NCBI GenBank assembly: GCA_047967505.1 | Contig: CM106538.1 | Direction: 5' to 3' (one strand) | From: Dipteris shenzhenensis | Lineage: Eukaryota | DNA: 64,000 nucleotides | The notes under the pieces: generated by a model | The model's input: the letters and a program-made list of their open reading frames with translations, nothing else | Database searches by the model: none | Told to the model about the DNA's origin: nothing | Shown: positions 25,866 to 64,000 of the stretch, one piece after another | Layout of the letters: each line of letters starts with the position of its first letter | How positions within the stretch are numbered: position 1 is the first letter of the stretch | Translations under genes and position numbers: made by a program

Positions 25866-26329
25866 TAGGAGAGAAATTTCTGAAAATAGGTTGTGAGAGA
25901 TTGAGGTAAAGAGGAAAATTTGTGGGAAAAAAGATTTAATGCAAAAATGGTTTTTTGAAGTTGTTGCGTTCACACAAGTTTTGAGAAAAGAATCGGATTT
26001 GAAAAAAAATTCAAATTTACAAAAACTTGATTCTTAGAAGTTCTTGCGTATGCAATAGGTTAGAAATGAACTCACCTCTTGCAACATTTTGAAAATTTTT
26101 GAGAATCCTGCAACAGGTTGATGAGAGGAGAGAAGCGTGGAGTGTAAAAGAATGATCTTTGAATGAAAGAGAGAATGAAGAATGTTCTACTTATAGTGAG
26201 CCTAAAAGAACTAAAAAAAACTTAAAAACTAAAAAAGCTGAATTGACCTAAAAGCTACCCATTTCCTATAAAACTCTACTTCTCCTCATTCTCTCTCACA
26301 ACTTTCCTGGAGCTCCACCACCTCTCCAC

Positions 26330-27800
26330 CCAGGTACTCCCTCCCTCCCTCTCGTCCCTCCCCTCCTGCTTCCCATCCCCTCTCCTCCCGCTTCCTCTCT
26401 CCCCTCCCTTCCCCTCTCCTCCCTCCTATCCCTTGCCCTCCCCTCCCCCTCCCTTCCCCTCTCCTCCCCCTTCTTCTCCCGCTTCCTCTCTCCCCCTCCC
26501 TTCCCCTCTCCTCCTGCTTCTCCCCTCCCTCCTCGTGCTTCCTCTCCTCCCCTCCCCCTCCCTTCCCCTCTCCTCCCCCTTCCCCTTCCCGTCTCCTCCC
26601 TGCTCTCCCTTCCCCTCCCCTTCCCCGCCTCCCCTTCCCCCGCTCCGCCGTCGGCCCCTCCCTTCCCCTCCTCTCCCTCCCCGTCGGCCGCTCCCTCTCC
26701 CTTCCCCTCCTCTCCCTCCCCCTCCTTGCCGGCCCCTCCCTCCCCATCGTCCCTCCCTTCCCTTCCCTATCGTCCCTCCCTGCCAGCCCCTCCCTCCCTG
26801 CCATCCCTCCCTTCCCTTCCCCGTCGTCCCTCCCTTCCCCTCCCCCTCCCCCTCCACCTCCCCCTCCCTGCCGGCCCCTCCCTTCCCCGCCTCCCCTCCC
26901 CGTCATAGGCGGGAGGGAGGGGGGCTGACATGAGGGGGAGGCAGGGAAGGGGAAAGGGGGGGGCCGATGGGAGGGCGGGGAAGGGGGAGGGGGGGCAAGG
27001 AGGGCACGGGGAAGGGGGAGGGGGAGGGGAGGCAGGGAAGGGGGAGGGGAGGCGTGGGGAAGGGGGAGGGGAGGCGTGGGGAAGGGGGAGGGGAGGCGGG
27101 AGGGCATGGGGAGAGGGGGGGGTTAACCTCCCCACCTGCTGCGCACACAACAGGTGGGGTGGGGGGGCTAATAATACCACAAGTGGGGTGGGGGGGGTTA
27201 ATAATACCCCCCCACCCACACCTATTGCATGCGCAGCAGGTGGGGGGGAAATTTTGTGGGGTGGGGGGGGGCGAGGTGGGGAAGGGGGAGGGGAGGCGGG
27301 AGGGCGAGGGGACGAGAGGAGGGAGGGGGAGGGGTAAACCCCCTGTTGCACATGCAACAGGTGGGGTGGGGGTAATAATACCCCCCACCCCACCTGTTGC
27401 GCATGCAACAGGTGGGGGTAAACCCCCCCTCCCTCCTCTCCTCCTGCCCTCTCACCCCCTCCCTGCCCTCCCTTCCCTGCCTCCCCTCTCCCTTCCCTGA
27501 CCGTTAACCCCCCCTCCCTCCTCTCCTCCCGCCCTCCCGTTGCCCCCTCCCTCTTCCTTGCCTCCCCTCCCGTTGGGCCCCTTCCTTCCTCCCTCCGCTC
27601 CCTTCCCCTTTCCTCCTGCTTCCCCCCCTCTTCTCCCTATTTTTTAAGGCGGGGAGCGGTGAGGAGGATGGGAGGGGAGGGAGGAGGGAGAGGAGAGGGC
27701 AGTGGAGAGGGAGGAGGCAGGCGGGGAGGTGAGAGGGAGGATGAGAGGAGGTAGGCGGGGAGGCGAGAGGGAGGAGGGAGAGGAGGCAGACAAGGAGGCG
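26330..27800. repeat. Alternating C-rich and G-rich low-complexity tracts around a palindrome cluster (27130-27430)
   Basis: Strong strand-skew switches; CCACCTGTTGCGCATGCAACAGGTGG-type palindromes. Confidence 0.85.
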
Positions 27801-28367
27801 AGAGGGTTCTACAGCTATTCCCAGAAAGAGAGCAAAAATAACTCCTACTCCACGTGTAGATCGTTCAAGTGCAGGTTATTTAAAACCAGGCAAAAAATTG
27901 GATAGCAATGAATGAGAGCATCTGCAAGAAGAAGATACAAGTCTCGAAGATTTTTCTATAAGTGTGGCAGACTTACATCCTCTAGAGGATGACGGGTACA
28001 TTTGGGGATTTTCACAATTTAGTGTGGCCAAAATGCTTATTGATCGAGCTTCGTTGTTCACAAATCAAAGAAAGCTAGAGAGAAGCTAGATAAGACATTT
28101 GCACGCAAATTATATGAAGATACGAGGAAAACAAGAACTCCAGTTGCTACTAATATCACTCTTCATCCTATGGCATTTAAGAGACTTCAAGAAGATGATC
28201 CTACATTGCCTGATGTCACATTTCAAAAGCGCATGGACTTTCTTGATGCCTTTGAGAACTTTAGGAGTGACTTTGTTCATGGAGAGGCTTTGTAACAAAG
28301 CCGATATGGGACTGACATCGAGAAGAGACACATGCTGGCAAAGAATAGATTCTTGGAAAGATGCAGG

Positions 28368-33670: not shown

Positions 33671-36349
33671 CTAACTAAGGAAGACTTGGTTTCCCAAATC
33701 TTCGTTTTTATCGGGGATGGCTCGCGTGTTGACGTAGTAGCGCTTCAATCGGCTCCCGTTTATTGTTGTGTTGAATTGGACTCCATCTAGTGTTTCAAGT
33801 AGCAGAGCTCCAATGGGATTCATCTTTCGTACTCGGTAGGGTCCTTGACCTAGATACTTCAGTTTTCCCTTGTGTACTTTGGCATTGTATAACAGGACTA
33901 AGTCGCCTTCCTTGATGTCTTTAGCTTTCAGATTCCTGTCAAACCATGCCTTTCTTCGACGTTTTTCTGTTGTCATGGCATGATAAGCGACTAGTCTTGT
34001 CTCTGTATGCTTTTCCAACTGACAGAGGCTTTCTTTCAAGGACTCATGATCACCCATGCGTTCCTGTATTGCGATGCGCAGACTTGGTATTACAAATTCA
34101 AGTGGGACCACGGCTTCAAGGCCGTACACCAATTGAAAATGTGTGTTCCCTGTACTGACCTTGAATGTGGTTCTGTATGCCCATAAGGCTGCATTCAGTT
34201 TCTCTGCCCAATCAGAACGCTGTGGTTCTACTACCTTGGTGAGGATATTGCATATGATTTTATTTGTGGATTCTGCTAGTCCATTCCCTTGGGGGTAGTA
34301 GGGTGTGCTTTTTCTATGAATGACCATGAAGCCAGACAAGAGTTCTTGGATTACCTCATTGACAAAATGTGTGCCTCTATCCGACACAATTTCAAGGGGG
34401 CATCCGAATCGGGTGATCACATGTTCGTACAAGAATCTTGCTGTGCTTTTGGCATCTGCCTTTCTGACTACTTTAGCTTCAGCCCATTTTGTAAAGTAAT
34501 CAGTGGCCACAATGATGTAGCGTGCCTGTGTTCCTTTTGCTGCTGGATGTATGGGACCTACATAATCAATCCCCCATTTTTCAAATGGCTGTTGTGCAAC
34601 AACTGTTGTTAGGGGATTGAAGTCTTTGTGTTGTGGTTTAATAGTTCGTTGGCATACATCACAGCCTTTTACATATTCATAGGCATCTGCCCACAGTGTT
34701 GGCCACCAGTAGCCTGCGAGGAGAACTTTTCTTGCTGTGGCTTCTCCTTGGAAGTGTCCTCCTGCAATGCCTTCATGGACTTCACTCAGGATTGGCAGGA
34801 TCTCATGAGGCATTACACATCTTCTTAATATCTGGTCCTTGCCCATCTTGTATAGTTGTCCTGCAATGAGTTGATATGGTGCAGCCTTTAGAATCAATTT
34901 TCTGGCATCTACTGCTTTCATGTCAGGGGGTGGTCTTCCTGCCATCAAGTACCCAATGATATCTCCACACCATTCTGGAACAGCATCTATTTGAAATAGT
35001 GTGGCATCTGGTAAGTCATCTTCTATTCCAGTGGCTTCTTCTCCAGTCTTGACTTGAGACATGTGATCGGCAATGTAGTGTTGGGCACCTTTGCGGACCA
35101 CAATTTTGAAGTTGAATTCTTGCAGCAAGAGGAGCCATCTGGTTATTCTTCCTGTGGTACACGGACGGTTCACAAGATAAAGCAATGCTTGATGGTCGGT
35201 GTAGAAGACAAAATCATTTGCAAGGAGATAGTGCCAAAATTTCTTTACACTATATACCATTGCTAGGGCTTCTCTTTCTGTGGTTGTATAGTTGATCTCT
35301 GCATCATTGAGTTGTCGACTGGCGAAGTAGACGGGGTAGTCTTTCTTATGTTCACCAGGTTGACAAAGCACACTCCCAATTGCATACTTGGATCCATCAG
35401 TATGAACATGAAAATCAATATCCCAATTGGGAGATAGAAGGATGGGTGCTGTGATTAGGCGCCACTTTAAAAGCTCAAAGGCTTGGTCGCACTCTTCGGT
35501 CCATAAGAACTCCACTAATAATTTGTAAAGTGGTCGAGCTATCATGGCATACCGCAATATAAATCTTCTATAATAGCCGGCATGTCCCATAAAGACCTGT
35601 ACACCTTTGGAATTTGTAGGAGGCAATTCCATGATGATTTTGATTTTGTCCATGTCAGTTGCAATCCCATGTTGAGAGACGATGTGTCCCAAAACAACTC
35701 CGTGGGTGACCATGAACTGGCATTTTGTTGGATTTAGGGAGATGCCATACTCCCTGCATTTGATTAATACTTCTTCCAGACATTTGAAGTGGTCCTGTTT
35801 GGTTGAATGGATGCACAAATCATCCAAGAACACCTGTAAAAACTTATTCAAGAATGACTTGAAAGCTGTGAACATGACTCGCTGGAATGTGGCTGGGGCA
35901 TTACAAAGGCCGAATGGCATGACTCTATATGCAAAAATACCCCATTTTGCAGCAAATGCTGTTTTTGATTGGTCTTGAGGAGCAATTTGTACTTGGTTAT
36001 AGCCACTGAAGCCATCCAAGAAGCTATAAATTTCGGATCCTGCCACCTTTTCCAACACTGTTTCTGTTAAGGGTAGGGGGTAGTGATCCCTAATTGTGGC
36101 GGCATTCACATTTTTCAAGTTTACGCATATTCTGAGCTTCTTGTTGCGTTTAGGCACAATGACAATGGGTGAAACCCAATCAGTGTGCTCTATCTCATAG
36201 ATGAATCCGGCATCTAGGAGTTTTTCCAGCTCGTCATAAGCCATGGTGCCATATTTAGGATTTGTGCGATAAGGGCCACATACCTTAGGGCGAGCACCTT
36301 CCCTTATAGGGATCGTATGAACTGCCACTTCTGGTGAAATTCCTTTCAT
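33671..36349 (-). CDS. pol: Pol: reverse transcriptase, RNase H, integrase (892-aa open segment)
   Basis: FLDGFSGYNQV, MPFGLCNAPATFQR, VFLDD; HTDGSKYAIG, TEREALA, YTDHQAL; H..H/CDVC, WGIDYVGP, VSDRGTHF, GLAESTNK, GPY. Confidence 0.95.
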   Translation of the reverse strand: MKGISPEVAVHTIPIREGARPKVCGPYRTNPKYGTMAYDELEKLLDAGFIYEIEHTDWVSPIVIVPKRNKKLRICVNLKNVNAATIRDHYPLPLTETVLEKVAGSEIYSFLDGFSGYNQVQIAPQDQSKTAFAAKWGIFAYRVMPFGLCNAPATFQRVMFTAFKSFLNKFLQVFLDDLCIHSTKQDHFKCLEEVLIKCREYGISLNPTKCQFMVTHGVVLGHIVSQHGIATDMDKIKIIMELPPTNSKGVQVFMGHAGYYRRFILRYAMIARPLYKLLVEFLWTEECDQAFELLKWRLITAPILLSPNWDIDFHVHTDGSKYAIGSVLCQPGEHKKDYPVYFASRQLNDAEINYTTTEREALAMVYSVKKFWHYLLANDFVFYTDHQALLYLVNRPCTTGRITRWLLLLQEFNFKIVVRKGAQHYIADHMSQVKTGEEATGIEDDLPDATLFQIDAVPEWCGDIIGYLMAGRPPPDMKAVDARKLILKAAPYQLIAGQLYKMGKDQILRRCVMPHEILPILSEVHEGIAGGHFQGEATARKVLLAGYWWPTLWADAYEYVKGCDVCQRTIKPQHKDFNPLTTVVAQQPFEKWGIDYVGPIHPAAKGTQARYIIVATDYFTKWAEAKVVRKADAKSTARFLYEHVITRFGCPLEIVSDRGTHFVNEVIQELLSGFMVIHRKSTPYYPQGNGLAESTNKIICNILTKVVEPQRSDWAEKLNAALWAYRTTFKVSTGNTHFQLVYGLEAVVPLEFVIPSLRIAIQERMGDHESLKESLCQLEKHTETRLVAYHAMTTEKRRRKAWFDRNLKAKDIKEGDLVLLYNAKVHKGKLKYLGQGPYRVRKMNPIGALLLETLDGVQFNTTINGSRLKRYYVNTRAIPDKNEDLGNQVFLS

Positions 36350-36370
36350 CTCTTTGTATGACCATGCTAG

Positions 36371-38279
36371 CTAGTCACGGTATTCCATTAGGAGGTCTTT
36401 GAGTTTGATTTCATCTTCTTGACAGAGCTGTTTCCCAATGAACACCAACTTTTCTTCCTCCCCTTCAAGGGCGAGGTTTATTGTGCGTGTTTTTGCCGGT
36501 CCCTCATAGATTGGAGGTTCTCCAATGCTATCGGTTTCTTGAACTTCAGATTCTCTGATTGGTCTTGGCATTGCTATTGGTGCACTGCCACTTGTATAAT
36601 TCTTAAAGTATTCCGGCACTGTCGGTCTCTGATGGGGTTGAACTAGCCTGAGATGTGTCATGAGTACTGGGTGGCATAGTTGCATTTAGTAATTTGTTAG
36701 GCTCTTCTTTTCTTTCTTTTTCTGAAGTCGTTTGATCGAGCTTCATCCGCACATGTGGCTTATATTTCCGAAACTTCTTACGTTGGGAACTATGGGGTAA
36801 CTTTTCCACTGGTAAGGTGTTTCCAAGTAAGGGTTCATGTGCTACACATACTCCTTCCAATCCTTCAGGGGACCATTCAAGAGGTGGTGGTTTTGACTTT
36901 GAGGGGACTGCCTTTGCAAGATACAATTCCACAATCCGTGTTTGGACTCGTTCGAATTCATTGAAGTGCTCGGCCTTGGCTCTTCTGCGATTTCCTCCTG
37001 CAGCTTTCTTGCGGGATCGTCTGCTATTATGCAACTGTGGAGGTTCAACTTTTGGGAGCTCAACTGCCATTAGGGCATGCAGAATGGCTAGGTCATTATC
37101 AAAGATTTCATCTTCAATTTCAGCATTCGCAGCCTCTGTTTCAAGGTCCCAAGGAAAATCTGAGTCATCATTGGTATGGGTACCTTCTTCAGGTTCATTA
37201 TCCCATTCGAGGTCAGCCATAAAGAAAGGCATCTCTAGATCAATTGGTTCTTCATGTGTCGGTGGAGGATCGACCTGTAGTGTGTTAACATCTATCTGTG
37301 AGAAGATGGGGTCTAATGAATGGCAGTTGTCGATGGTTGCCAATGTTTGTATCCAGTTATTGACATTGCTTTGTAAGTCACCTGCTATGGCATGCTGTTG
37401 CAAGGGATCTGATTTGCTCGAGATTGTCGTGGAAGATGTGTCATCCAATGCTCTAGGAACAATGGGTTTAATAGCTCTTGTCCCCACATTCACCCTAACT
37501 GCATTGTCTCGATTCTGGATTGTCAATCTATCAGTGCCCCAGTCATGGAGGACTGATGCTTCCCGTAACCAAGGACGTCCCAGTAAGATTTGATAGGATT
37601 TTTTGGGGAGATCCAAGATTGTGAATTGAAGGGAAAAGCGGACTCCTGCGATCTTTGTGGACACGCCATTCACTATTCCCAAGGGTTTAGCCCGTGAATC
37701 ATCGGCAAGGCGTATGTTGAAATTAGCCTTTTGCATTGGTGGGAGACCCCATTCTTCGTAAAGCTCCTTTGATAGGACATTGACACCTGCTCCACCATCC
37801 ACTATGGCTTGGATTTCATTATATGCCTTGTGGATCAAAGGCACAGTGATGTTGCGTATGTCATCTTTCTCACCCATCCGCACAGGGATATCATCAATGT
37901 CGTTCATAGGTGGAGGGGGATTTGTGAGTTCAATCCATCCTTTGAAACTCTCCCAGAGATTGGGACAATTTCGTAAGAGGATTCCAATGGGAATGGACAC
38001 AGGGCAACTCAGTATGCTAGAGAGTGCAGCTCCTTCAAGTTGACGTGGCGGAACATTCTGTTGTGGAGTCTGTTGTTGGAACAAAGGCTCGAGTACAGTA
38101 TCAATACTTTGTGGGGCCAAGTCATGGAGTGGGGCTTGAGCTTGTTTCTGAGTCTCAAATTGAGCTTGTTCATTTTGGACCCATTGCTGAAGTGCCTGAA
38201 AATGAGCCTTCTCCACCTCTGCATTCCGGAATGGAGCTTCTTTTATTCGAGGCTCGGGAGTTGATGTGGATGAACTCGG
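36371..38279 (-). pseudogene. Aspartic protease and spacer; in frame with gag after a TAG, frameshift near 36650
   Basis: AIVDGGAGVNVL and ILLGRPWL in ORF 36603-38216; ORF 36371-36685 is in frame with pol apart from one TAG. Confidence 0.82.
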
Positions 38280-39911
38280 CTACTCATTGCTTGGCGGAGG
38301 TGGAGGCACTTGTGCTTTCTTTCTCAGAAGTCGCTTCGGTTGGATTGGAATGATAGGGTCCTTCGTGGCCGCTTTCTGTTGGCGTGTAATTACATTGATA
38401 GGTTGTGACTTAGACTTGCCAGATCCAAGACTTTGATGGTCCACCCCAATGATGCCGATGGGGACGTCAGGCTTAACCTCTGTTTGTTCTGGAACCTTAT
38501 TTTTCATGGGACAATCCATACAGGCATGTCCTATGCCACAATCTCTGCAGAGTGGTTGGAAAGTGGCTGGGCTACCGCGATGAGGGCACTCTGCGATTCT
38601 ATGATTTTCTCCACAACCGTAACACTTGATTGGTGCTCGAAATGTGTTGGGTCGCACTTGATTTGCATACACTGGTATTAGACCCTCTGCACCTTCTACA
38701 TAGTACACTGGGTACTCTGCTTCATACTCAAATAGCGAGTCTACTTCCTCGGCTTGTAATTGATGTATGGGAACTGCCTGAGGAGCTGGATTTGGTGCTC
38801 TTGGATACGGTCGTGGATTCGGATTCCTGAGTAGTTGTGGGACTTGTGTCCGAACGGGAACAGGATTTAGTCTCGCAGCTGGGGGCGCTTGTGCAAGTGC
38901 CGATTGCCTGTATACTGGCATGGGTGCCGCTTGGTATTGTGGTGGTTGAGGCGGATTGTTGCGCATGTTGAAGATGCAACTGGTCTCATCATGGCCGCCG
39001 ATGACACAGATATGGCACCACAACCGTGGCGGTGGATTTGCTTGTGCAGTGATTCTTGCTCTTAGGACTGGGCATTCATTTGCTGTATGATTGGCCAAGC
39101 AGTGTGGGCACCAGACATTTTCTCGCCGTGGATATGTTTGAGTTGGCGGCTGAGACAAGTGAAGTTTTTGATCCATGGCCTGCATCATATCTTCTTTCAG
39201 CTTCAAGGTCATGGCCTCGAGGCGATCTTCATTGGATGTTTCGACAGAGTCCTTTGATTTACCTTTTTTCGAGCGCTTATCTCGTGTATTTGATCTGGCA
39301 TCATCACTGCTAGTGTCTGAATCTGTCATGCCATCTTCGATGTCAATGGCTGCCGCATGAGCAGCACTGAATGTTTCATAGCTACTTATCTTTTTCATAT
39401 CCTTGCGGATTTTCTTTCTTAGACCTGCTATGAACCATGCCGTGAGGTACTTTGCATCTGGGCATGGGTCACATTTGGCGATCAATCTCTTCATCTTTCC
39501 CAGGTATGTGCGTACATCTTCCCTCCGGCCTTGTTCGATCTTGCTGAGTTGGAGAGCGGGATCATCTTGTAGCCTCTCTGTTTGAAAGCGACGTTTGAAT
39601 TCGGTTTGAAGTAGGTCCCATGTAGCACGTTCTTCCACAAGAAGGTCGAGGTACCATTCTGACGCCTCATCAGTTAAGGCCATTGGAAACCAAGCCACCT
39701 TAGTTTCATGGGATTGATCACCACCTGCTCGACATGCGGCATCAAAATGTTGGAGGAAGCGAGCAGGGTCTCCCCTACCATTATATTTGGGAAGTTCCAG
39801 TTTTCCCAAGGGGCGTCGGCCGTGATTGTTGTGATTTCGTCGATTGAAGAAGTTGTCAGCCTCGGCATCGAGCTCGATGTCCCCATCATGCTCAGGACGG
39901 CGTCCAGCCAT
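38280..39911 (-). CDS. gag: Ty3/gypsy Gag, 543 aa
   Basis: LPKYNGRGDPARFL, ASEWY, IEQGRREDVRTY, WFIAGL; several Cys/His knuckles. Confidence 0.88.
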   Translation of the reverse strand: MAGRRPEHDGDIELDAEADNFFNRRNHNNHGRRPLGKLELPKYNGRGDPARFLQHFDAACRAGGDQSHETKVAWFPMALTDEASEWYLDLLVEERATWDLLQTEFKRRFQTERLQDDPALQLSKIEQGRREDVRTYLGKMKRLIAKCDPCPDAKYLTAWFIAGLRKKIRKDMKKISSYETFSAAHAAAIDIEDGMTDSDTSSDDARSNTRDKRSKKGKSKDSVETSNEDRLEAMTLKLKEDMMQAMDQKLHLSQPPTQTYPRRENVWCPHCLANHTANECPVLRARITAQANPPPRLWCHICVIGGHDETSCIFNMRNNPPQPPQYQAAPMPVYRQSALAQAPPAARLNPVPVRTQVPQLLRNPNPRPYPRAPNPAPQAVPIHQLQAEEVDSLFEYEAEYPVYYVEGAEGLIPVYANQVRPNTFRAPIKCYGCGENHRIAECPHRGSPATFQPLCRDCGIGHACMDCPMKNKVPEQTEVKPDVPIGIIGVDHQSLGSGKSKSQPINVITRQQKAATKDPIIPIQPKRLLRKKAQVPPPPPSNE

Positions 39912-40499
39912 GTTGGGGCGAGGAGGAGTTCAAGGAAGTTGTTGAATCTCAGGGGGGAATTCGGGGTAGAGGATTGGCGGGGGCGGTTGTTGCAGTGGAG
40001 TTAGTTGCGGATTGGGCGAGTGTTGGAGTCGAAGTCGTTGGCCGGAACGTAACTGCATGCAGAGGGTGCGTGATTTGCCAAGGGTATCGCTACCCCAAGG
40101 GCGGGTGTGGAGGTGGTGTCGTTAGGAGAGTTAGAGTGATGTTAGTTGGTGTAGGGACCGTCGTGTTAATAAGGTGCCTAGGATTTTCCTACGTGTGTAG
40201 GAAAATGTGCCAGTGCAGACGGATCGTTAATCGGAGGTCGCGGCGTGAAAATACGAGTGAATTAATGCAAAATGAGGCCCACACGGGGGCGCGAATGAAC
40301 GTGTGCTAGGGATGCCGAAATGGTGTGCAATGGGCTGGAAAAATACCCCGTAACGTGGTGTTTCCGTGTGTGAAATCTGGGTTCAAACGGGGTTCAATTT
40401 GGGTCCCAAACGGATGAGTTTCGAGGGGTTAAAGGAGGGGTAAATTTGGCGTTTGGGGGGCTCCTAATGGTGGTGTGAATGGACTTTAAGTCCAACCGA

Positions 40500-40865
40500 G
40501 GGGTTGAAACCAAGTGACTCTAGTTAGACTAACTAACCTAGATCCTCCCAGTTACTGTAACTGGGAGGTTTAACTAACTGTAGTTAGATACTAACTGAAG
40601 AGTTAGTCTAACCTAACTGAGGGTAACTAAACTAACCTAACCTCAGTTACTACTAACCAAACCTACGTAGCTAATCTAACTGAGGGCAACTTGACGAACC
40701 TAGTTGGCCTAACCTAACTAACCTAACCTAACTGTGGTTAATACTAACTAGTCTAGGGTTAACCGACCTAACCTAACCTAACCTAACCTAGGTTAACCAC
40801 TAACCTAACTACAGTTAGCACTAACCTAACTATGGTAAATCTAACCTAGAGTTAATTTTAGGTTA

Positions 40866-40896
<31 letters not shown>

Positions 40897-42120
40897 GGGT
40901 GGTTCTGAGGGGGGGCTGCCCGACGGCGGCGCCCTGGGGGGCTGCCCGAGGTGGCGCAGGGGCGGGACGGGGGTGCGCGGGGGGCGGGGTGGGTGCGGGG
41001 GGTGGGAGGGGGTGCGAACGCGGGCGCAGGGCGGGGGAGGGCGGGGGGTGCGTGAGGAGAGGGGGTGGGGCGGGGGGGCGGCGCTGTGTGCGCCGCCGCG
41101 GGGGCGGGGGGTGCGTGAGGAGAGGGGACGAGGTGGGTGCGGGGGGTGGGAGAGGAGAGGGGGCGGGTTGAGTGCGGGGCGCAGGGCGGGGCGGGGGGTG
41201 AGAGAGGAGAGGGGGCGGGTTGAGTGCGGGGCGCGGGGGGGAACGTGCGAGGGGGAGGGCGGGGGCACCATCGCAGGGCGACGGTGGCTGCGGCGGGGGT
41301 GGCGAGCGGCGGGGCGGGGATGTGCGAGGGGGAGGGTAGGGGCGCCGCAAGGCGGCGGTGGCTGCGGCGGGGGTGGCGAGCGGCGGGGCGGGGGTGGCGC
41401 GCGGGCGGGGTGGCGTAGGAGGGCGCGGGCGGGGGCGCCGCCGCAGGGGGGCGCTGCGCGGGGCGGGGGTGGCGCAGGAGGGCGCTGCGCGGGGCGGCGG
41501 CGCGGTCGCCACGGGCAGACGGGCGGGCGCCGCGGGCGGGCCGGGGGGGGCGCTGGGCGGGCGGCGCTGCATGCGCCGCCGCGGGGGGGTGGGGGGTCGA
41601 GAGGGGGTTTACAGAGAGGGGAGAGGGGGGTAAGGGGGAGGGGGTAAGCGGGAGAGAGAGGAGAGGGGGCGGGGTGAGAACGAGGGGGAGAGAGGAGAGA
41701 GGGAGTGAGAGAGGGGGTGGGAGAGGGGGAGGGGGAGAGGGGGAGGGGGGAGGTGGTAGTGGAGGGGGAGAGGGGAGGTGGTAGTGGAGGGGGAGGGGGA
41801 GAGGGGGAGGTGGTGATGAAGGGAGAGGGGGAGGGGGGAGGTGGTAGTGGAGGGGGAGAGGGGAGGTGGTAGTGGAGGGGGAGGGGGAGAGGGGGAGGTG
41901 GTGATGAAGGGGGAGGGGGAAGAGGGGAGGTGGTAGTGGAGGGGGAGGGGGAGAGGGGGAGGTGGAGATGAAGGGGGAGGGGGAGAGGGGGAGGTGAGGG
42001 GGAGGTGGAGATGAAGGGGGAGGGGGAAGAGGGGAGGTGGTAGTGGAGGGGGAGGGGGAGAGGGGGAGGTGGAGATGAAGGGGGAGGGGGAGAGGGGGAG
42101 ATGGTGGTGGAGGGGGAGGG
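40500..42120. repeat. Low-complexity 5' leader: (TAACC)n-like tract, T run, CpG-rich block, G-rich minisatellite
   Basis: AACCT repeats 40500-40870; ~24 T at 40873-40896; GC-rich 40900-41600; GGGGGAGGTGGTAGTGGA units 41740-42120. Confidence 0.88.
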
Positions 42121-54860: not shown

Positions 54861-57099
54861 ATGATTGCCATCCATGTAAAAGAGATAAACCATCTCAGAT
54901 CATTAATATGTTTTCAGCAATTCAAGACAATATCACTAACATGTTATAGGAAAAAAATGTACGTTTGCTAGACCTCAAGAGAGAGAAACTATCCAATCAT
55001 CTTGCCCCCTCCATGCATGATTGGATGGTTTTAGATGTGGTAACCTGCCTATGGAAATAGGTGTAGGATGGCAAGTTGCCTTTTCTCACATCTCGCTCTT
55101 TCTTGAGTAAGCATCTATCTGTACTATGATCATTCGTGATATCGTACTCTGTACACGAATGTCGGTATTTCACAACCACTATTGCAGTAGCTAGCAATAC
55201 CTACATGTGCACTTATCAAGACTCTTTATTTGAATCTATGAAGTAAAGGACACCTACCTAGGCTAGACATACCTAACATGAGTTTAGATGTACATATCAT
55301 ACCTATATAAGTTCAACTAATTGTTAAGAAAGTATTACAATCTACACATAAATGCATGGTATAGTTTGCCACAAATTTCATCTTACAAGTAAGAAGACAA
55401 TTATAGTCCATAACATTCTCTAACATGTAGTCTGCGGGTTGATACAAGCTAGTAATTGCAAGCTACACAACTGGGTAGAATTTCAATGGTATCGACGACT
55501 GGCGAATGAGAGCCACAACCAGTGAAAGCCAAGTATTATTATTTTTCTCAATAAGTACATATAAACTGTAATATATCATTTACTATTTCACATCCATGTG
55601 CGAGTAGTTATCGGTTGGAATATCTTGACCACACACACACATGCACATGGTTCAAAGATATAATGTATCCATATGCGAGTAGTTACAAGTTAGCATACAC
55701 AGATGTTCCACTAGCATGTAGATACTTGCTTTCAAAATCTTCTATATTTTTACTATTTTTTTGTAATAGATATAGCTAATGACTATTAAACATGTAATTT
55801 ATTTACAAGTTTATAAATACCAAAAACTATAAGGTTTCACTAAATTTAAAAGCTAATTCGCTATGCCTGTAAAAATAACTTTCTTTTTTATTTTTTTTGT
55901 GAAAATAACTTCAAATATATTTTAAAAAAATATTGTTCTTTCCTTTCAAATCACAAACCATAAACCATAAACTAAGAGCTTTGCATTCATCCATTTTGCA
56001 TCCTAATGTGGGTAGATATCAACTGGCTTGAGCAAGAGCCCACCACCGACACTGGATACTTTTTAAAAGGATACAAAAACTTACAAATTTGTTTGGAAGC
56101 TTTCTTTATCCCTTTTTTCTTGTCCTTTTATGTTTTTTTTGAGACTCCAAGTAGAGCTAGATTCTCAGGAATGCAAATAGTAGAAGGTGGGCGCACAATA
56201 TATATAAGAAATTATACTACATGGTATGTGCAACAAACCCGCACAGTAGTTGAAATGTACCATGCAATATATCTATCACCGCATGGTATAGATAAATACC
56301 GAGTGGTATATTTATCTTCTTACTGCATGGCATGTAGTTTTACCACATGGTAATCTCGATAAAAAAAAGTGGCAAGGCTGGTTTAAACCGCTCCAGGGGG
56401 GTCCAAAAAATGTTTAAAATGTTTCAATTTTCCAGTTTAAAATGCCCGTTTTCATTCCCTCCCAAATCCATGTCTACCTCATGTGTAGATCCTTTTACCT
56501 TAGGTCTCTGTACGATGGCACTTTGGAAGTATTCAAGCATTATCTTTGATTACATTCTCTTTGCTTCCATAATGGGGAATTTCTCCCATACAAGTTTGAA
56601 GATCTCCAATGAAGGCGTCAATTCAAGAAATTGGTTTGTTTTTGGAGGCGACATCACAAAGTGCTTTGCGTCTCTCTTGGACATCTATTGCCAGTTGGGT
56701 GTGATTTTTTGGTGAGCTTTTTGTCACGAGATTTTTTTCAATTTTCATGAATATTGTGAGCTTTTCATTCACCCATCTCCCCAGCGTCTCTATTCCATCC
56801 AGGAGCTGAGAGGGGGTTTTAGAGGCCGACATCTCCTGATGTCACCTAGAGAGAGAGGGCCTTGCTTATGGATATGAATGAACCTGACATGACAACTTCG
56901 TAAAGTAAGGCTTATGAAGTAATGGAAGGATCCTCATGCAATACTATGTGTGTACAATAATGTGTGCATGGAATTTGGAAAAACCTTTCTTTGAAATCAA
57001 AATGAAGGTATCATGGCTTAGATTGGGAGGAGATGAGGAGAAATCAAAAACCAACATGAAGAGAAGTCCCATCCACACAGTGCACTATCAACAAATAAA

Positions 57100-58860
57100 G
57101 AGATCAAGAGACTTTTTTTCACCTGCATTCCACTGAACAGTTGCAGGGCTGCCTTGCCTGCCCATTCTGAGCACAACCAACACTTATGTCACTCCAAGAG
57201 ACCACATTCCACTGTGACATCTCTGTGAACACTGCCCTTGCATCACTTAGGTTCATGCACTTGCAATACATATGGACGAGGGCATTCCCCACAATAACAT
57301 CTAACTCCCATCCATTGCCAACAATAGTAGCATGGGTCACACGACCCTCTTCTAGGGATGTCATACAAGCACAAGCATCCACAATTCAAATGAAGGTGAT
57401 CTTGTCTGGCATGAGACCTTCAACTTGCATTTGGCCAAATAATTGTAGAGATTCTTTGCCATGCCCTTTATGGGCACACGCAGCAATCATGGCACTCCAG
57501 GAGATCACATCTTGCTGTAGCAACTCTACAACAAACACCACCCTCGCATCCTCTATGCTCCTACATTTGCCAAACCTATTGATGCCAACAATAGTGCATG
57601 GATTACTCTACCCTCTTCTAAGGCTCCGAGACTAATGCATACATCCACGGCATGCATCCACGATGCAGATGAAGGTGATCATGTCTAGTGCAATACCTTC
57701 AGCCTGCATTTGACCAAATAGTTGTATCTTTGCCATGCCCTTTCTGGATGCATTCAGCTATCATCGCACAATAGGGGATACAATTCTGTTGTAGCATTTC
57801 AGCAAGAACTAGCCTTGCATCATCTAAGCTCCCACAGTTCCCATACATATTGATGAGGGATGTACCAAGGACAAAATCCAATCGTTTTTGGACAACATCC
57901 AAGGTAATTAAGGGCTTGTAGTCTGGTCCCCACACCTCTGTCAAAGCATATTCAGGGTATATCTCCCTCTTGCAAAACTTAATCGAACTATCATGCCCTA
58001 ACAACGTCTCGAAACTTCATGACCCTATTTGGCCTACTCCTTATCTTTCACAAAATTCGTGCTATAGGTCCTGTACTATCTCCCTCAAGTCTTGAATTCA
58101 CTCCACCCTCTCCTTAAGGCAGTTTCTAGCCAACCTGATATCGCCATACATAGCATGTCCAGAGATCATTGCACCCCATGCCCTTGCATCATCAAGGCTT
58201 TCACACTTGCCATACATGTTGATGACAACATTTTTTATAACATCTGACTCCCCTCCGTTGCAGCAACAGTAACATGGATCACTCAATCCTCTGCTAGGGC
58301 AATCACGATGGCTCACAAATCCATAAGGTAAAGAGTAGCAATGCCTCCTTGCCAATCAAGGCACTCCAAAAGATCACATCTCACTGTAGCAACTCTGTAA
58401 CAAACACCACCATCACATCCTCTCTACTGTTGCATTTGCCATACATATTGATAAGAGCATTCCCCACAACAAAATCCAACTCCCATCTATTGCTAACAAC
58501 AGTAGCATGGATTACTCTACCCTCTTCTAAGGCTCCCATGCATTGGAATATGAGTTTATCTGGCTTCATGCCACTATGTTGCATTTTCCCAAAAAGCTCG
58601 AGCAAGAACAGCATGCACATGTTCAGTGCATCCTACAATCAAAGCACCCCATGACACTACATCCCAATAGGTCAGTTCATAAAATTCTTTGTGCACCTGA
58701 ACAATTGCAGGGCTGTCTTGCCATGCCCATTCTGAGCACAACCAGCAATCATCGCACTCTAGGAGACCACAACCCATTGTGGCATTGCTGCAAACACTGC
58801 CCTTGCATCATCTAGGTTCACGGAATTGGCATACATATTGACAAGGGCATTCCCCACACA
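57100..58860 (-). pseudogene. PLS-class PPR gene fragments
   Basis: Repeated VGNALVHMYCKC, GTSLINMYGNCGSLDDAR and VVSW motifs in shifting frames. Confidence 0.88.
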
Positions 58861-59037
58861 GTAACCTCTGACTATGGAACCAAAAAAGAGCAGAAAGCAT
58901 AGAGCAATAAAGACACTCTTGTGCCACACAACCACCATGACCAAGGACATAGTATCTGTTACATGACAACCTCAACAAGAACATCAAAAGTGATGATCAC
59001 AAGTATTACTGTCAATACTACATAGTTTATGGAAATG

Positions 59038-61828
59038 CTATTCTATACTGATTGATCGCAGACACATGTCAGCAACAACATTGTCATTCTCTATGGAAAG
59101 ACAATGGCGACCTAAGTCTTCGCAAAGCCTTGCCATCCCAAAGCAACCTGCAAAGACATTGATGATGCAATCACCAGGGTTTGTGAATGTTCTGAGTATC
59201 CACCTACAAGAAGCACTAAAAGGGATCAGAGGATGTTTGACAATCCATATTTGTTTTCCTTGAAAGAACTTCAATTATACCCCATAAATTCAATCTGTGC
59301 TTGTATAGGGTCTTACTCGTGCAAGTAATCTGATCTTTCTACCCCTCCTCGTAAGTAAGTTGATGCAACTTGTGTCTGTTTTGTGACATGTTTATGGTCA
59401 CACTCGTGTAGCACTGATGTCTTTGCTGGAAAAAGCTTATTAGAGACATTTGCACCTGTCTATCGATCCATGTGTGGGAGGTCCGATTTTCCACGCCAGA
59501 AGATACCCATTTGTAGATTGCGAACCTAATGGATGATGACACCTCAAGTTAGATACATCCAAATCATGCTTATTAGACCAATATAAACAAACATTTAGAT
59601 GATTTAATGTACCTCCTCTCCATCATCATGTAAATAACCAAAGTCAAGAAGCACCATATATGATCGATGGAGCTTGAACTCGGCCTTTTTCGCATGTGCA
59701 AATATATAGCCCCAATGTTTTGGGAGAGAGCAAGTCATGTACCACCCCTGGTCTACTACAAAGTCATTGGCAAACTCCACCACCCTTGCAGAGAGCTTGA
59801 GGGAGAATCTATTCCACTCTGGGCATGTAGTACTACTTATGAGTTCCACTACCAAACTTGTGGGAAAATCTGCCCATACCAAGCGAACCACCTTGACACA
59901 AGAATTACCATTGTGTGACAAACCTGGTGCTTTCACTTTTCTTAAAAATTCATCAACCCTACAATGAACAATTTAATCTCCCTAGATCAATGACCTATAT
60001 TCCAAAATAGATTCTTAAATGTACGCATTTCTTTAAAAAAGAAACACTTACAGCTTTGGTGCATTCGACAACTGAATGATATCCTCTGTAATTATATCCA
60101 TATATGGAAACAACTTTACATCTGCATCAAATCCTAGCTTGAAAGCTTTAGTTTGGCTGCAAAATCAAAAAATCATAACCAAGAAAGAGAGGAGTGATAC
60201 TCACTAGATAAACTCAGTTGTTGAGTAATGGAATTGGTTCTTGAAGCATGAAAATTGAGTCGTTGCTTTGTTCTCAGCTCTTGAGTCTTAGAGGACTCTA
60301 CATTCTCCGATAGAACCTACTTGTAAGAATTACAAAGGACAAGACTCTAGGTTATACTATATTGTTTCTTTAGTGTTAGTTGTTAACTATTACATAAGTA
60401 TGAGGAGTAGAGGTCTCACAGGTCTTTTCTTAATAGCTGACTCTCCATCCGTTGATCTAGGTCATAATGTGATATCCACATAAGGGTTCTCTGCATCCAA
60501 TTCATCCTCATCCATATTGTCTTCCATGTTGTTCTCGAAGACTGAGCAGCAAATGTTGCAAACTTAAGTATATGGTAGATACCCGCATATATAGACATTG
60601 GTCTAGATGCCTATGGAATAGGGAACTTTGGAGTATTACCTTCATGTCTATTTTTCTCAATGGGATGTACTTTTCCCAGTGGGTAATCCAACCACCAAGG
60701 ACACACATTAATCTCCCAAATCGTTATGCCCTTATCTTTCCAAGATAAGGGATACATGCTTCCCCCTTTCTCCATGTTTGTCCATGCCATGACCTCATAT
60801 GGCATCCTTGAAGATGAATTGGTATCATGCCAAGACCATATCCACCTATTATGTATGAAAGAATGTAGACATATGAGTGAAACAATTTATTAATCCTAAG
60901 AGAAAGGAGAGGGTTGCTATTGTACCACTTATACACCAAGTGTAAAGATGACTCCTGCATTTTTGGCTGCTTATTTGCTTCAAGAGTAGACTTCATATCC
61001 TTCCAAAGCATAGGGAAGGCTTCTTGGAGGTGAAGTCATCTTTGCTCTTGAGCAAATGTCTCAAACCCATCGGGCAGTTCCAAATCATGGCTTTGCAAAT
61101 TGTTGATGATGGAAATCCCTCGCTCAAACAAGTATTGCCAATATGTTTCCTTTTTCACATGTAGTCGAAACTTTTGGGCATCCCCATACTTAGCAGATGC
61201 AACTGTATCATTTCCACGTACCATCATCAATTGTTGTAGAAGCTCTTTTTTCCTATTAATATCATGGCAAAGGAAAAAAATATTAGCATCACTATGGAGT
61301 GATTGTGCAAAAACATTAATCGACATTACCTATTAGGGTTGAGACGTGATGAGGCTAATATATGGACTTTGTCCTTAGTCGTGGCACCCTTTTGATTCCA
61401 ATCATAACTAAATAGAAGCTCAAATAAGCCATCACCATTTGCAAGATTGGCAACAGGTACCATCTTGTATGCTCGATCACGAAAGATGACTTCCACATTC
61501 TTAATAGCCTTACTAAAGTTATTAGTATACTCCTCCAGACTCATCTTCGATTGATCAAGATTTTGAGTAGCTTTCTTGATTGCATGTGAAAAATCATCCT
61601 TCCATGAAAACAAGAAATCAAAACATTGTATGCTTGATCATGAAAGATGACTTCCAAAAGAAGTTCACAAATAGAACCTATCAACTTGAGGATGTTGATG
61701 GCATCGTGATACCCAGATGCACCAATGAGTATCGCCTTAAATTCTTCTATGCTCGACCACCTTGAGGGCCAACAGACCCTTTTTGTTAGTAGAGAAGACC
61801 TGCTGGGAGGGGAAGGATGTGACGCCAA
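59038..61828 (-). pseudogene. Multi-exon gene relic with C-terminal N4/N6 DNA methyltransferase-like domain (beta-type motif order)
   Basis: 59604-59936 VRLVWADFP...PEWN (motif IV-like); 59038-59210 ILRTFTNPGDCIINVFAGCFGMARLCEDLGRHCLSIEND (motif I-like); GT-AG-like gaps between blocks; upstream same-strand ORFs 60724-61828 of unknown family, linkage inferred. Confidence 0.6.
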
Positions 61829-61973
61829 AATTGATATTTTTCATTTGGCATTGGTATTGTTTTCTTCTATGTTTGATAAGAGTTTGAGTATCAAGTGATA
61901 GCCTAGCGGCTCTCACTTATTTCTATTTTCAAAGATATTGTATGGGATTGAGAGGATGAGTGGAATGGATCAT

Positions 61974-62930
61974 TGTAAATACCATAGGTATGAATTACAA
62001 ATACCTTGGTATGGGGTGAGAGTTATTTGTGTATGGGATATTCTGGGGTTTTTAGAAAATAGGACTTAGAGAGTCATATAAAGAGGTGGACTCATGTCCA
62101 TGTGTTTCAATAATATTAGAGAGGCCACATGCCAAGCGTGTGGAAGGCATGTGGAGGAGTGTGAAGTCGAGAGGAATCCTTCTAGAATTCCCATGTGGAA
62201 TAAGGAGGATGTGGACATTAGGAAAATAGAGGGTCCCTGTGGGCTCCATCTGGGGAGACTCTTGACTTTCTCAATATTTTAAGAGTCAAGCATCTTTTAA
62301 TGGGACACATGGCAAGAGTAGCCAAAAAGGACATGGATGGTGACATACGGGCTTATGTGATTGATGGGGAAAAGAATCTACGGGCAACAATTGTAAATGG
62401 GTGAATGAGGGTGATAAAATCTCTTAAAAAGGAGCCCTCCTCTCCCTTGTTCACCATATCTCTTCCACCATTAGGCCTCATGTTGTTGTAGCTCTAGTCT
62501 CCTCAAGCCTCTTCCATGAGCCTTCTCTCCCTCTTGTAGATATTCTCTTATGTAGACTCTTGAGTCCATCTCTCTCTAGTTTATTCTCTCTCTATGAGTA
62601 GTCTTGGAGCTTCTGCGCCCTGTTGTATGTATGAAACCTCTTCTTCTCCCTTGTGTTTGTAGTATTTTGAGTGTATTTGAGTGGAGTCTTACTCTCATGG
62701 CAATGAAAGTCACTTCTTATAATTTTCCTTGAGTCTCCATTCCTTTTTCTCCATTCCTATGTTCTTTTCTGTCTCTATTCAAGTCTCTAAAGTAGTTCTT
62801 GTTCGGCCGCTCACTATGCACACATGGTCCATCCATTTCTCGAGCCACCATGCAAGGTTCTTCCTCTCTTTTAGGCGAATTCTAGGGGTATTCGATTGTT
62901 GATAATTGTGGAGCCTTAAGGGAGTAGTTT
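61974..62930 (+). repeat. Possible LTR fragment
   Basis: Starts TGTAAAT, TATA-like element near 62424, CT-rich downstream; no partner or TSD found. Confidence 0.3.
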
Positions 62931-62934
62931 GCTT

Positions 62935-63683
62935 ATTTGTTTGCAGGTTGAAGAAAGCCTTGTATGGCTTGAAGCAAGCACCTAGAGAATGGTCTGACAA
63001 GATAGGACAGTATCTTGTCACTATTGTCTTTCAAATTTCCAAGGGAGATTTCTCACTTTATGTGAGAAAAACAAAGGTATTATGCCGCTTGTCATTTATG
63101 TTAATGATTTGATTATCACAGGCGATAGTGATGAAGATATCCTTCATGTGAAAAGGCTATTGAAGCAGAAGTTTTAGATGAAGGATTTGGGAGGGCTGTG
63201 TTATTTCTTGGGCATTGAGGTGATTAGATCACCAAGTGGGATACGGCTCTTGTAGAGGCAGTATGGATTGGACATGCTGTCCAAAGATGGGATGACAGGC
63301 TGTAAGCCTATTTCAGTTCCTTTGGAGCAGAATGTGAAGCTCAACACAGATGCAGGTGAGCTTCAGGAAGACCCTACTATGTACAGACACATAGTAGGAA
63401 TTTTGATTTATATGACTATTACCAAGCTAGATTTGAGCTATGCTGTTGGATTGGTAAGTCAGTTTATGCAGGCTCCAAGGAAACTGCATTTGGATGCGGC
63501 TAGATGCATACTCAGGTATGTGAAGTTGACATTGTAGTATGGAATATTTCATGAGACTGGGGTTCAGATATAGTTGCATGGATACACTAATGCTGATTGG
63601 GCTAGTAGTATTTCTTATAGACAATCTACTAGTGGATATGTGTGAGAGATGTGTTCTCTTTTGGGAGTGCTGCAGTCACTTGG
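62935..63683 (+). pseudogene. Ty1/copia RT / RNase H fragment, same family as 2147-12849
   Basis: [37 protein letters not shown], closely matching ORF 3991-4224. Confidence 0.9.
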
Positions 63684-63705
63684 AGCACTCCCAAAAGAGA
63701 ACACA

Positions 63706-64000
63706 CATGGGACAAGTGGTTGCCATTGTTGGAGTTTGCCTACAATGATAGAAAACATTCATCTACCGGGTTCAGTCCGTTTGAGCTGAACTATGGTTAT
63801 AGTTGGAGTACCTCAGAAAGTGCCTAGTGCCGCGAACTTTGTAGTTCAGATGTGGGAGATGCGAGCACTTGCGAGAGCTAATATCTGTCAGGCTATGGAT
63901 AGAGCCAAGGTGTATGCGGATGAAAATCGGTCTATAAGAGTATTTGAAGAAGGAGAAAAAGTTTTTCTCAGAATTCCTTCGCACTCGAAGTCGTTGACTT
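63706..64000 (+). pseudogene. Ty3/gypsy integrase C-terminal fragment
   Basis: WDKWLPLLEFAYNDRKHSSTGFSPFELNYG, then ADENR..FEEGEKVFL. Confidence 0.85.

Follow-up and report, generated by a model that had tools for sequence, protein, structure and literature searches.

What kind of gene left its remains on the minus strand near the end of the 64,000-nucleotide stretch of Dipteris shenzhenensis DNA analysed here (contig CM106538.1 of assembly GCA_047967505.1; hereafter the window), and was the family to which it belonged ever a family of DNA methyltransferases? A preliminary description made from the sequence had placed a relic of a spliced, prokaryote-type amino-methyltransferase gene at 59038-61828. 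It had regarded the catalytic motif as non-canonical and the copy as dead, and had proposed a spread with transposable elements. The observation was confirmed, and the interpretation was supported in part. What lies at 59038-61627 (minus strand) is a pseudogene, copied from a genuine plant gene of the fern type with several exons and truncated at its 5' end. With a probability of roughly 0.72, we read it as the dead copy of a plant gene whose product carried a domain derived from permuted methyltransferases, in a family that was likely non-canonical.

Gene model and decay of the window copy

The two sequence blocks that had drawn attention to the locus, LVWADFP and, downstream of it, TNPGDCIINVFAGC...LGRHCLSIEND, were indeed both found on the minus strand. 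LVWADFPT lies in an open reading frame (ORF) at 59604-59972, with ADFPT at 59859-59873, and the second block lies in an ORF at 59038-59274; further open pieces upstream of the ADFPT ORF reach about 61640 on the same strand. Residues 156-837 of P0031, an 837-amino-acid (aa) hypothetical protein of Adiantum nelumboides, were collinear with the window from 61604 down to 59059 by tblastn. A gene model derived from homology and splice signals comprised eight exons with consistent phases. Its seven introns measured, in the 5' to 3' direction of the gene, 77, 80, 98, 103, 93, 87 and 113 nucleotides (nt); all were GT..AG with matching phases.

Public sequencing runs were compared with the window over 58900-62100, among them X1, presumed to be RNA, and X3, of the DNA type. 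Contigs of X1, with about 96% identity to the window, skipped exactly the last four introns, and all joints read CT..AC on the plus strand. A single 969-nt X1 contig spanned three exons, with 33 differing letters in 859 nt. The last four introns are thus backed by contig joints; the three that lie upstream are predictions only. Unspliced contigs were present in X1 too, among them contigs over 59959-60051 and 60418-60798, and the spliced ones could still be a processed DNA copy. The contigs of X3 over the gene were unspliced, with about 97% identity to the window.

The first recognisable exon, which is partial (61330-61627), matched residues 156-249 of P0031 by tblastn and ends at a GTAATG donor at 61329. 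It is followed by a predicted intron (61253-61329), where one of the X1 contigs is broken off at 61254, its end loose and without a joint, and by an exon known from tblastn and the ORF list (60926-61252) with an in-frame TGA at 61036-61038. The next predicted intron (60846-60925) was drawn from homology and reading phase only. The exon after it (60640-60845) carries the conserved motif CPWWL(D/E)YPLG, as seen in tblastn to P0031 residues 356-425 and in the family alignment A1. At the third predicted intron (60542-60639), the sole X1 contig listed (60418-60798) was unspliced. An acidic linker exon (60420-60541; ORF list and gene model) with an in-frame TGA at 60462-60464 precedes the first of the introns with an X1 joint (60317-60419, GTGAGA..AGTAG, joint 60314>60418). 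A second linker exon in the gene model (60052-60316) leads into the methyltransferase-like domain; within it the reading passes from the frame of the ORF 60173-60316 to a different one, that of the ORF 60048-60164, which points to a frameshift.

Beyond the intron 59959-60051 (GTAAGT..TTGTAG, joint 59957>60051) lies the exon of the catalytic half (59613-59958), in which ADFPT is the motif IV-like block. After the intron 59526-59612 (GTACAT..CATTAG, joint 59523>59611) comes an exon recognised by tblastn to P0031 (59317-59525). It is interrupted by an in-frame TAG at 59460-59462, a site at which relatives such as P0004 have K. The last intron (59204-59316, GTAAGA..TTGTAG, joint 59201>59315) leads to the last exon (59038-59203), which holds the motif X, I and II region (TNPGD, FAGCFG at 59137-59154, LSIEND) and the stop codon TAG at 59038-59040. 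The GT-AG-like sites noted earlier near 60051, 59612 and 59205 were therefore all true intron ends, removed in the X1 contigs. The two blocks belong together, as had been claimed, since they are joined in the spliced contigs and in the relatives P0015 and P0031; the exon at 59317-59525, which lies between them, had been missed.

At the 5' side the extent had been set too wide. Down to 59038 it was correct, but family homology ends at about 61627, and an X1 contig also diverges beyond this point with a loose end. The ORF at 61628-61840 (minus strand) has no homology to the family and forms a rearranged 5' edge of the relic. A 31-nt direct duplicate lies right where family and X1 homology stop, 61626-61656 copying 61465-61495 in the first exon part with 94% identity. 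A search for the lost N-terminal part in 61600-64000 gave nothing below E 0.46.

The window copy is dead and cannot make the protein, which agrees with the earlier impression: it carries the three in-frame stop codons, a frameshift within the exon 60052-60316 and the loss of its 5' part. In both X1 and X3, contigs have a G at plus-strand position 61038, giving CGA (Arg) where the window has TGA. Among 78 differences to X1, 46 were transitions with A/T in the window and G/C in X1, against 15 in the reverse direction (p 9e-5), and 11 of the 20 listed transitions of the former kind were at CpG. Nearly all of the listed X1 differences that could be placed in a codon (14 of 16) alter a residue or a stop. 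Such C-to-T-biased change is typical of methylated, unconstrained DNA. The X1 contig over 60051-60316 differed from the window by seven substitutions and no gap, and hence shares the frame change in this exon. A 48-nt micro-intron that would cure the frame change was considered and rejected, as the phases do not fit.

Two further RNA runs, X17 (about 19% read) and X18 (about 24% read), gave 15 and 44 matching reads, respectively, all of them only at a piece of about 44 nt at 60675-60718. Since the flanks were unlike the window on both sides of the piece, these reads derive from other loci. The piece lies inside the CPWWLDYPLG exon and is common to abundant sequences elsewhere, with a summed depth of 156 in X3.

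Relatives, methyltransferase kinship and catalytic motifs

A search with the motif-IV exon (59613-59957) against 1.84 billion representative proteins returned 30 proteins at E<=1e-3. Twelve of these had E-values of 1e-10 or lower, and the top match had an E-value of 8.5e-30 and 46% identity. With 30 such matches among so many representatives, the ADFPT block is more than a chance feature. The same search limited to 'longer' lengths found nothing. Three of the matches were long proteins, P0015 (529 aa), P0016 and P0018. P0015 and its relative P0031 hold an ADFPT-type block and a C-terminal block of the type ...LDLFAGCG... in one chain. Searching with P0015 gave 15 proteins, and searching with alignment A1 gave 34, of which 15 were named Adiantum nelumboides and three A. 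capillus-veneris. All named relatives were hypothetical proteins of the fern genus Adiantum. A search of open-access texts and preprints found no paper on the fern-type family. In the P0031 model, a stretch of about 50 residues with the CPWWLKYPLG motif occurs twice in tandem in identical form; this could stem from a recent duplication of an exon or from an error of annotation or assembly.

The C-terminal domain is, as judged by profile-profile comparison, related to the beta-class (permuted) N6/N4 amino-methyltransferases. Library hidden Markov models (HMMs) detected the last exon only. It matched PF01555 (E 7.4e-4, 20 bits), the PHROGs family phrog_3008 'DNA methyltransferase' (E 1.4e-5) together with five further methyltransferase PHROGs, and, in NCBIfam, PRK11524 (E 8.8e-6) and CcrM (E 0.003). 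In tblastn against phages it matched 665 records (best E 2e-3), and the rows listed fell mostly under methyltransferase features. In each of the eight matches that were fetched, the matching part was the C-terminal end of a gene annotated as a methyltransferase. These eight phage enzymes served as the reference set; each matches PF01555 (E 1e-17 to 1e-43), and ParB_N is also present in one.

Aligned with the reference set by hhalign, A1 reached a probability of 96.6% (E 5.7e-10, 146 columns), and at a lax alignment threshold ADFPT fell on DPPY. With the domain alone, the probability was 95.2% (E 2.8e-8) and the 180 aligned columns extended from motif IV to motif II; the C-terminal 60 or so residues alone gave 97.3%. 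Reversed profiles had E 0.15-0.26 and the best of ten column-shuffled profiles E 0.11, with controls overall at E 0.11-0.93. A local HMM of the eight phage enzymes scored the joined window translation, with X at the stop, at 33.5 bits, compared with <= -0.2 bits for reversed sequences. The order of the beta class is present, with the motif IV-like block upstream of the motif X-I-II block and both within the permuted profile match. The central claim of the preliminary description, a spliced gene akin to prokaryote-type amino-methyltransferases with beta-class motif order, was borne out in these comparisons.

The catalytic motif has a different history from the one proposed at first. That it is non-canonical was correct, but this is not damage to the window copy. 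The canonical (D/N/S)PP(Y/F/W) was absent from all 18 rows that cover the motif IV site. Ten rows, the window included, have ADFPT, two have ANFPT, two ADFPS, and one each ADFPA, VDFPT, AHFPT and ADFTT, so that each of the eight other rows deviates from ADFPT at one position. Because no row is canonical, the altered motif is a conserved property of the family and not decay. The residues of HPTxKP, invariant in the eight phage enzymes (H299, P300, T301, K303 and P304 in A2), are replaced in the fern-type family by GGAERT or GGVERS. The motifs of the S-adenosylmethionine (SAM) pocket are retained for the most part. Motif I follows FxGxG in four of the six rows that reach the C-terminus (P0015, P0031, P0032 and P0040), with FADCG in P0033; the motif I reported earlier as FxGxG reads FAGCFG in the window, which is not strictly of this form. 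The acid E of motif II is present in five of the six rows, with K in P0032.

With both the DPPY-type and the HPTxKP motifs replaced, the fern-type family probably lacks canonical base-amino methylation. In the rotifer enzyme N4CMT, as described in part of PMC8885841, changing SPPY to APPA, which removes both the Ser and the Tyr, abolishes the formation of N4-methylcytosine (4mC). One might instead suppose that the family consists of active writers of 4mC or N6-methyladenine (6mA), like MpDN4MT1 of Marchantia or rotifer N4CMT, and that the window holds a dead copy of such a writer. The conserved beta-class order and SAM-pocket motifs fit this, as do the D of motif IV in 15 of 18 rows and the second P in 17 of 18, and intron-bearing eukaryotic writers of the PF01555 type do exist according to sections of the Marchantia bioRxiv preprint and of PMC8885841. 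We nevertheless hold it to be rather improbable, given that no row has the PP-aromatic core, that HPTxKP has no counterpart, that N4CMT does not survive the loss of its motif and that the MpDN4MT1 enzymes have TSPPY in the passages of the Marchantia preprint that describe them.

Under the reading that we prefer, that of a family derived from methyltransferases and likely non-canonical, the ancestral protein would have had a helical middle region, an acidic/basic linker and a C-terminal domain of about 260 aa. The domain would derive from the beta-class (circularly permuted) N6-adenine/N4-cytosine DNA methyltransferases. Of the SAM pocket it retains motif I (F-x-G-x-G in most members), the acid of motif II and a TNPGD-like turn; the catalytic tetrapeptide is swapped family-wide for D-F-P-T/S, and an HPTxKP-type motif is absent. 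Most likely, such proteins would bind SAM or nucleic acid without canonical base-amino methylation. They would then be pseudo-enzymes or partners in the manner of METTL14, or act on another substrate.

How far the likeness extends

Several results weigh against this reading. The comparison with PF01555 that had been suggested as a check gave a match for the last exon whose 20 bits lie below the gathering cut-off of 26.7 bits, and none of the 28 rows of A1 reached that cut-off; at E<=1 only four of the 28 matched at all. P0015, P0031 and P0032 scored 14.5-16.8 bits. A sequence profile search of the PDB stayed at E 0.1-0.14, with a DpnA-like enzyme at E 0.12. AlphaFold models were poor, with a mean predicted local distance difference test (pLDDT) of 49 for the whole of P0015 and of 50 for the C-terminal part of P0031. 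Three fold searches of these two models gave nothing above noise, with no Foldseek match at E<=1e-3 and no VIA match at Z>=5. Among the insignificant top rows for the first model were CcrM with Foldseek (E 1.2) and, with VIA, Trm11, Trm14 and TrmM (Z 4.7-4.9), the latter tied with unrelated folds; the list for the second model was headed by unrelated alpha/beta folds. Amino-methyltransferases headed two of the three lists, at insignificant scores from low-pLDDT models.

The same caution applies to the choice of references and to the runs. The phage enzymes had been picked by their likeness to the window's last exon, which favours a C-terminal match, and for this reason hhalign was also run with the nine Adiantum rows only, which gave 91.3% (E 9.7e-7, 183 columns). 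That X1 is RNA is a guess. As the X1 contig shares the frame change in the linker exon, the copy of this relative may be non-coding too, or the linker 60052-60316 may be read otherwise. The inactivity of the fern-type family is drawn from its motifs only.

The catalytic half is where the likeness is weakest: on its own, it gave just 8% in hhalign (E 0.004), with the register unchanged, and no match in Pfam, PHROGs or NCBIfam. This would be expected if only the last 60 or so residues (motifs X-I-II) were methyltransferase-derived and the ADFPT block were an unrelated domain whose likeness to motif IV is a coincidence. The language-model matches of the motif-IV exon might be taken in the same sense, as they fell to kinase-like clusters (0.89-0.92), but with merely 119-134 shared features they were set aside as uninformative. 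The match of the catalytic half, however, lies in the expected register over template columns 26-112, pairing DPPY with DFPT, LKPGG with ADEGW and GF with GF, and recurred in three separate runs. Some 40 residues separate ADFPT from ADEG, where the phage enzymes have some 35, and the better-modelled part of both low-pLDDT models is a strand-helix-strand-helix-strand succession, as expected after motif IV. Moreover, a SAM-binding half by itself would not make a stable Rossmann-type domain. We therefore regard a chance pairing of two unrelated parts as quite improbable, and favour a single domain of permuted-methyltransferase origin.

Surroundings, mobile elements and known systems

The DNA of the window is nuclear and plant-like, with many retroelements. 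It contains a near-whole Ty3/gypsy element at 33674-39929 (minus strand) with long open frames for gag (549 aa), protease (558 aa) and reverse transcriptase (RT)-RNaseH-integrase (899 aa), a copia gag at 5298-6134 and a copia RT fragment at 62906-63112. Two G+C-rich tracts, 26001-28000 (GC 0.61) and 40001-42000 (GC 0.64, skew 0.51), are of low complexity and open in several frames. Just upstream of the broken 5' edge of the relic lies a high-copy repeat (61789-62100), in which many contigs end; its part 61896-62002 had a summed word depth of 1065 in X3 and 151 in X1.

On the other side, a decayed array of pentatricopeptide repeats (PPR; 57119-58971, minus strand), with matches to PF01535 and PF13041 and many stops, starts about 70 nt downstream of the stop codon of the relic. 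Its first ORF (58759-58971) is by coordinates in the frame of the last exon, but stops intervene. The 969-nt X1 contig continues for at least 110 nt past 58900 toward the array. According to Iyer et al., there are permuted methyltransferase clades in microbial eukaryotes that are fused to PPR domains. The Adiantum relatives end without a PPR.

The Adiantum proteins, among them P0031, P0033 and P0034, have an N-terminal region that is absent from the window. Residues 78-240 of P0034 resembled clusters of the fungal family DUF3723 (PF12520) in language-model features (0.96, 194/256 features shared), which we treat as a lead only; with the DUF3723 Pfam model, none of the 28 rows gave a match at E<=1. 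DUF3723 is presented in parts of the Starship preprint as conserved accessory cargo of unknown function in the Starships, giant transposons of fungi. A ParB-like N-terminus, seen by eye, was not supported: hhalign against nine phage ParB_N segments gave just 3% (E 0.014), and no Pfam match was found in the Adiantum members. Atlas structure rows for the region listed ParB_N/GmrSD_N at template modelling (TM) scores of 0.35-0.48, below the bar of the tool.

Could the gene have been cargo or machinery of a mobile element, multiplied with it, so that the window shows one decayed insertion? The preliminary description had proposed that the family spread with transposable elements. A. nelumboides has 15 or more gene models of the family, often in fragmentary form, which would suit such a history, as would two Adiantum models fused to pieces of retroelements (PF00078 in P0041, and a retrotransposon-like beginning in P0036), the resemblance of the N-terminal region to a Starship accessory and the position of the relic amid copia and gypsy debris. 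Against this stand the seven spliceosomal introns with conserved phases and the fact that no member matches the DUF3723 Pfam model, and chimeric gene models are common annotation artefacts in genomes rich in transposable elements. In the window, the proposed spread found no backing: no second copy of the relic was found within the 64 kb, and within 55000-64000 it is not bordered by terminal repeats, whether inverted or direct. The X3 contigs listed over the gene body were single ones, with a summed word depth of 7-19 as compared with the 1065 at 61896-62002, although word depth is not a copy number. On balance we consider the cargo hypothesis unlikely for the window, while in Adiantum, with its many gene models and two chimeras among them, there may be room for it.

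A bolder picture can be drawn from the same data. The relatives could be an undescribed eukaryotic clade of permuted amino-methyltransferase derivatives with a SAM pocket, a fixed D-F-P-T and a DUF3723-like N-terminal module, whose expansion in Adiantum would mark an unrecognised large mobile or defence-related element; they would act as pseudo-enzymes in methyl-mark or SAM sensing, or as enzymes with a new substrate. We offer this as speculation that is very unlikely to hold in full, and keep to the simpler reading of a dead copy from a divergent methyltransferase-derived plant family.

Even so, the family has some interest. Sections of PMC4738411 describe land plants as having few adenine or amino-type DNA methyltransferases, and in the papers searched, the only writer of 4mC from a plant was that of Marchantia. 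A second, structurally divergent family derived from permuted methyltransferases of the bacterial type in vascular plants, with spliced genes and an expansion in Adiantum, would add to the independent captures of such enzymes by eukaryotes, and it poses a biochemical question, namely the role of a SAM pocket combined with DFPT. The window copy matters here only as a dated, decaying example, an ordinary pseudogene of a mildly interesting family.

The PF01555 enzymes, such as CcrM and the DpnA-like M.HpyAVI, are among the closest known systems. They share with the fern-type family a motif IV-like block ahead of X-I-II, which is placed at the very end of the chain, a TNPGD turn and, in most of its members, a glycine-rich SAM loop and the acid of motif II, followed by a helix with R; profile-profile probabilities were 91-97%. 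In contrast to them, the fern-type family is eukaryotic, has seven introns, carries long N-terminal and middle parts that are unrelated to these enzymes, replaces (D/N/S)PP(Y/F/W) with DFPT(S), is without HPTxKP and stays below the Pfam threshold. MpDN4MT1a/b of Marchantia and bdelloid N4CMT, as described in the literature, resemble it as permuted amino-methyltransferase domains in spliced eukaryotic genes. Compared by described motifs only, they carry (T)SPPY and have shown activity, whereas the fern-type family has ADFPT; this motif comparison revealed no link to the Marchantia enzyme.

DUF3723 is alike only in the N-terminal region of the Adiantum members, where the resemblance is one of language-model features and not of an HMM match. 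A parallel to the proposed fate of the family is found in METTL14/Kar4 and the methyltransferase (MT) domain of the DIRS1 retrotransposon, which, in the sections of PMC4738411 that treat them, keep the methyltransferase fold while their active-site motifs are substituted, and for which non-catalytic roles have been proposed. Unlike the fern-type family, these belong to MT-A70 and PCIF1-like clades and are not PF01555-like.

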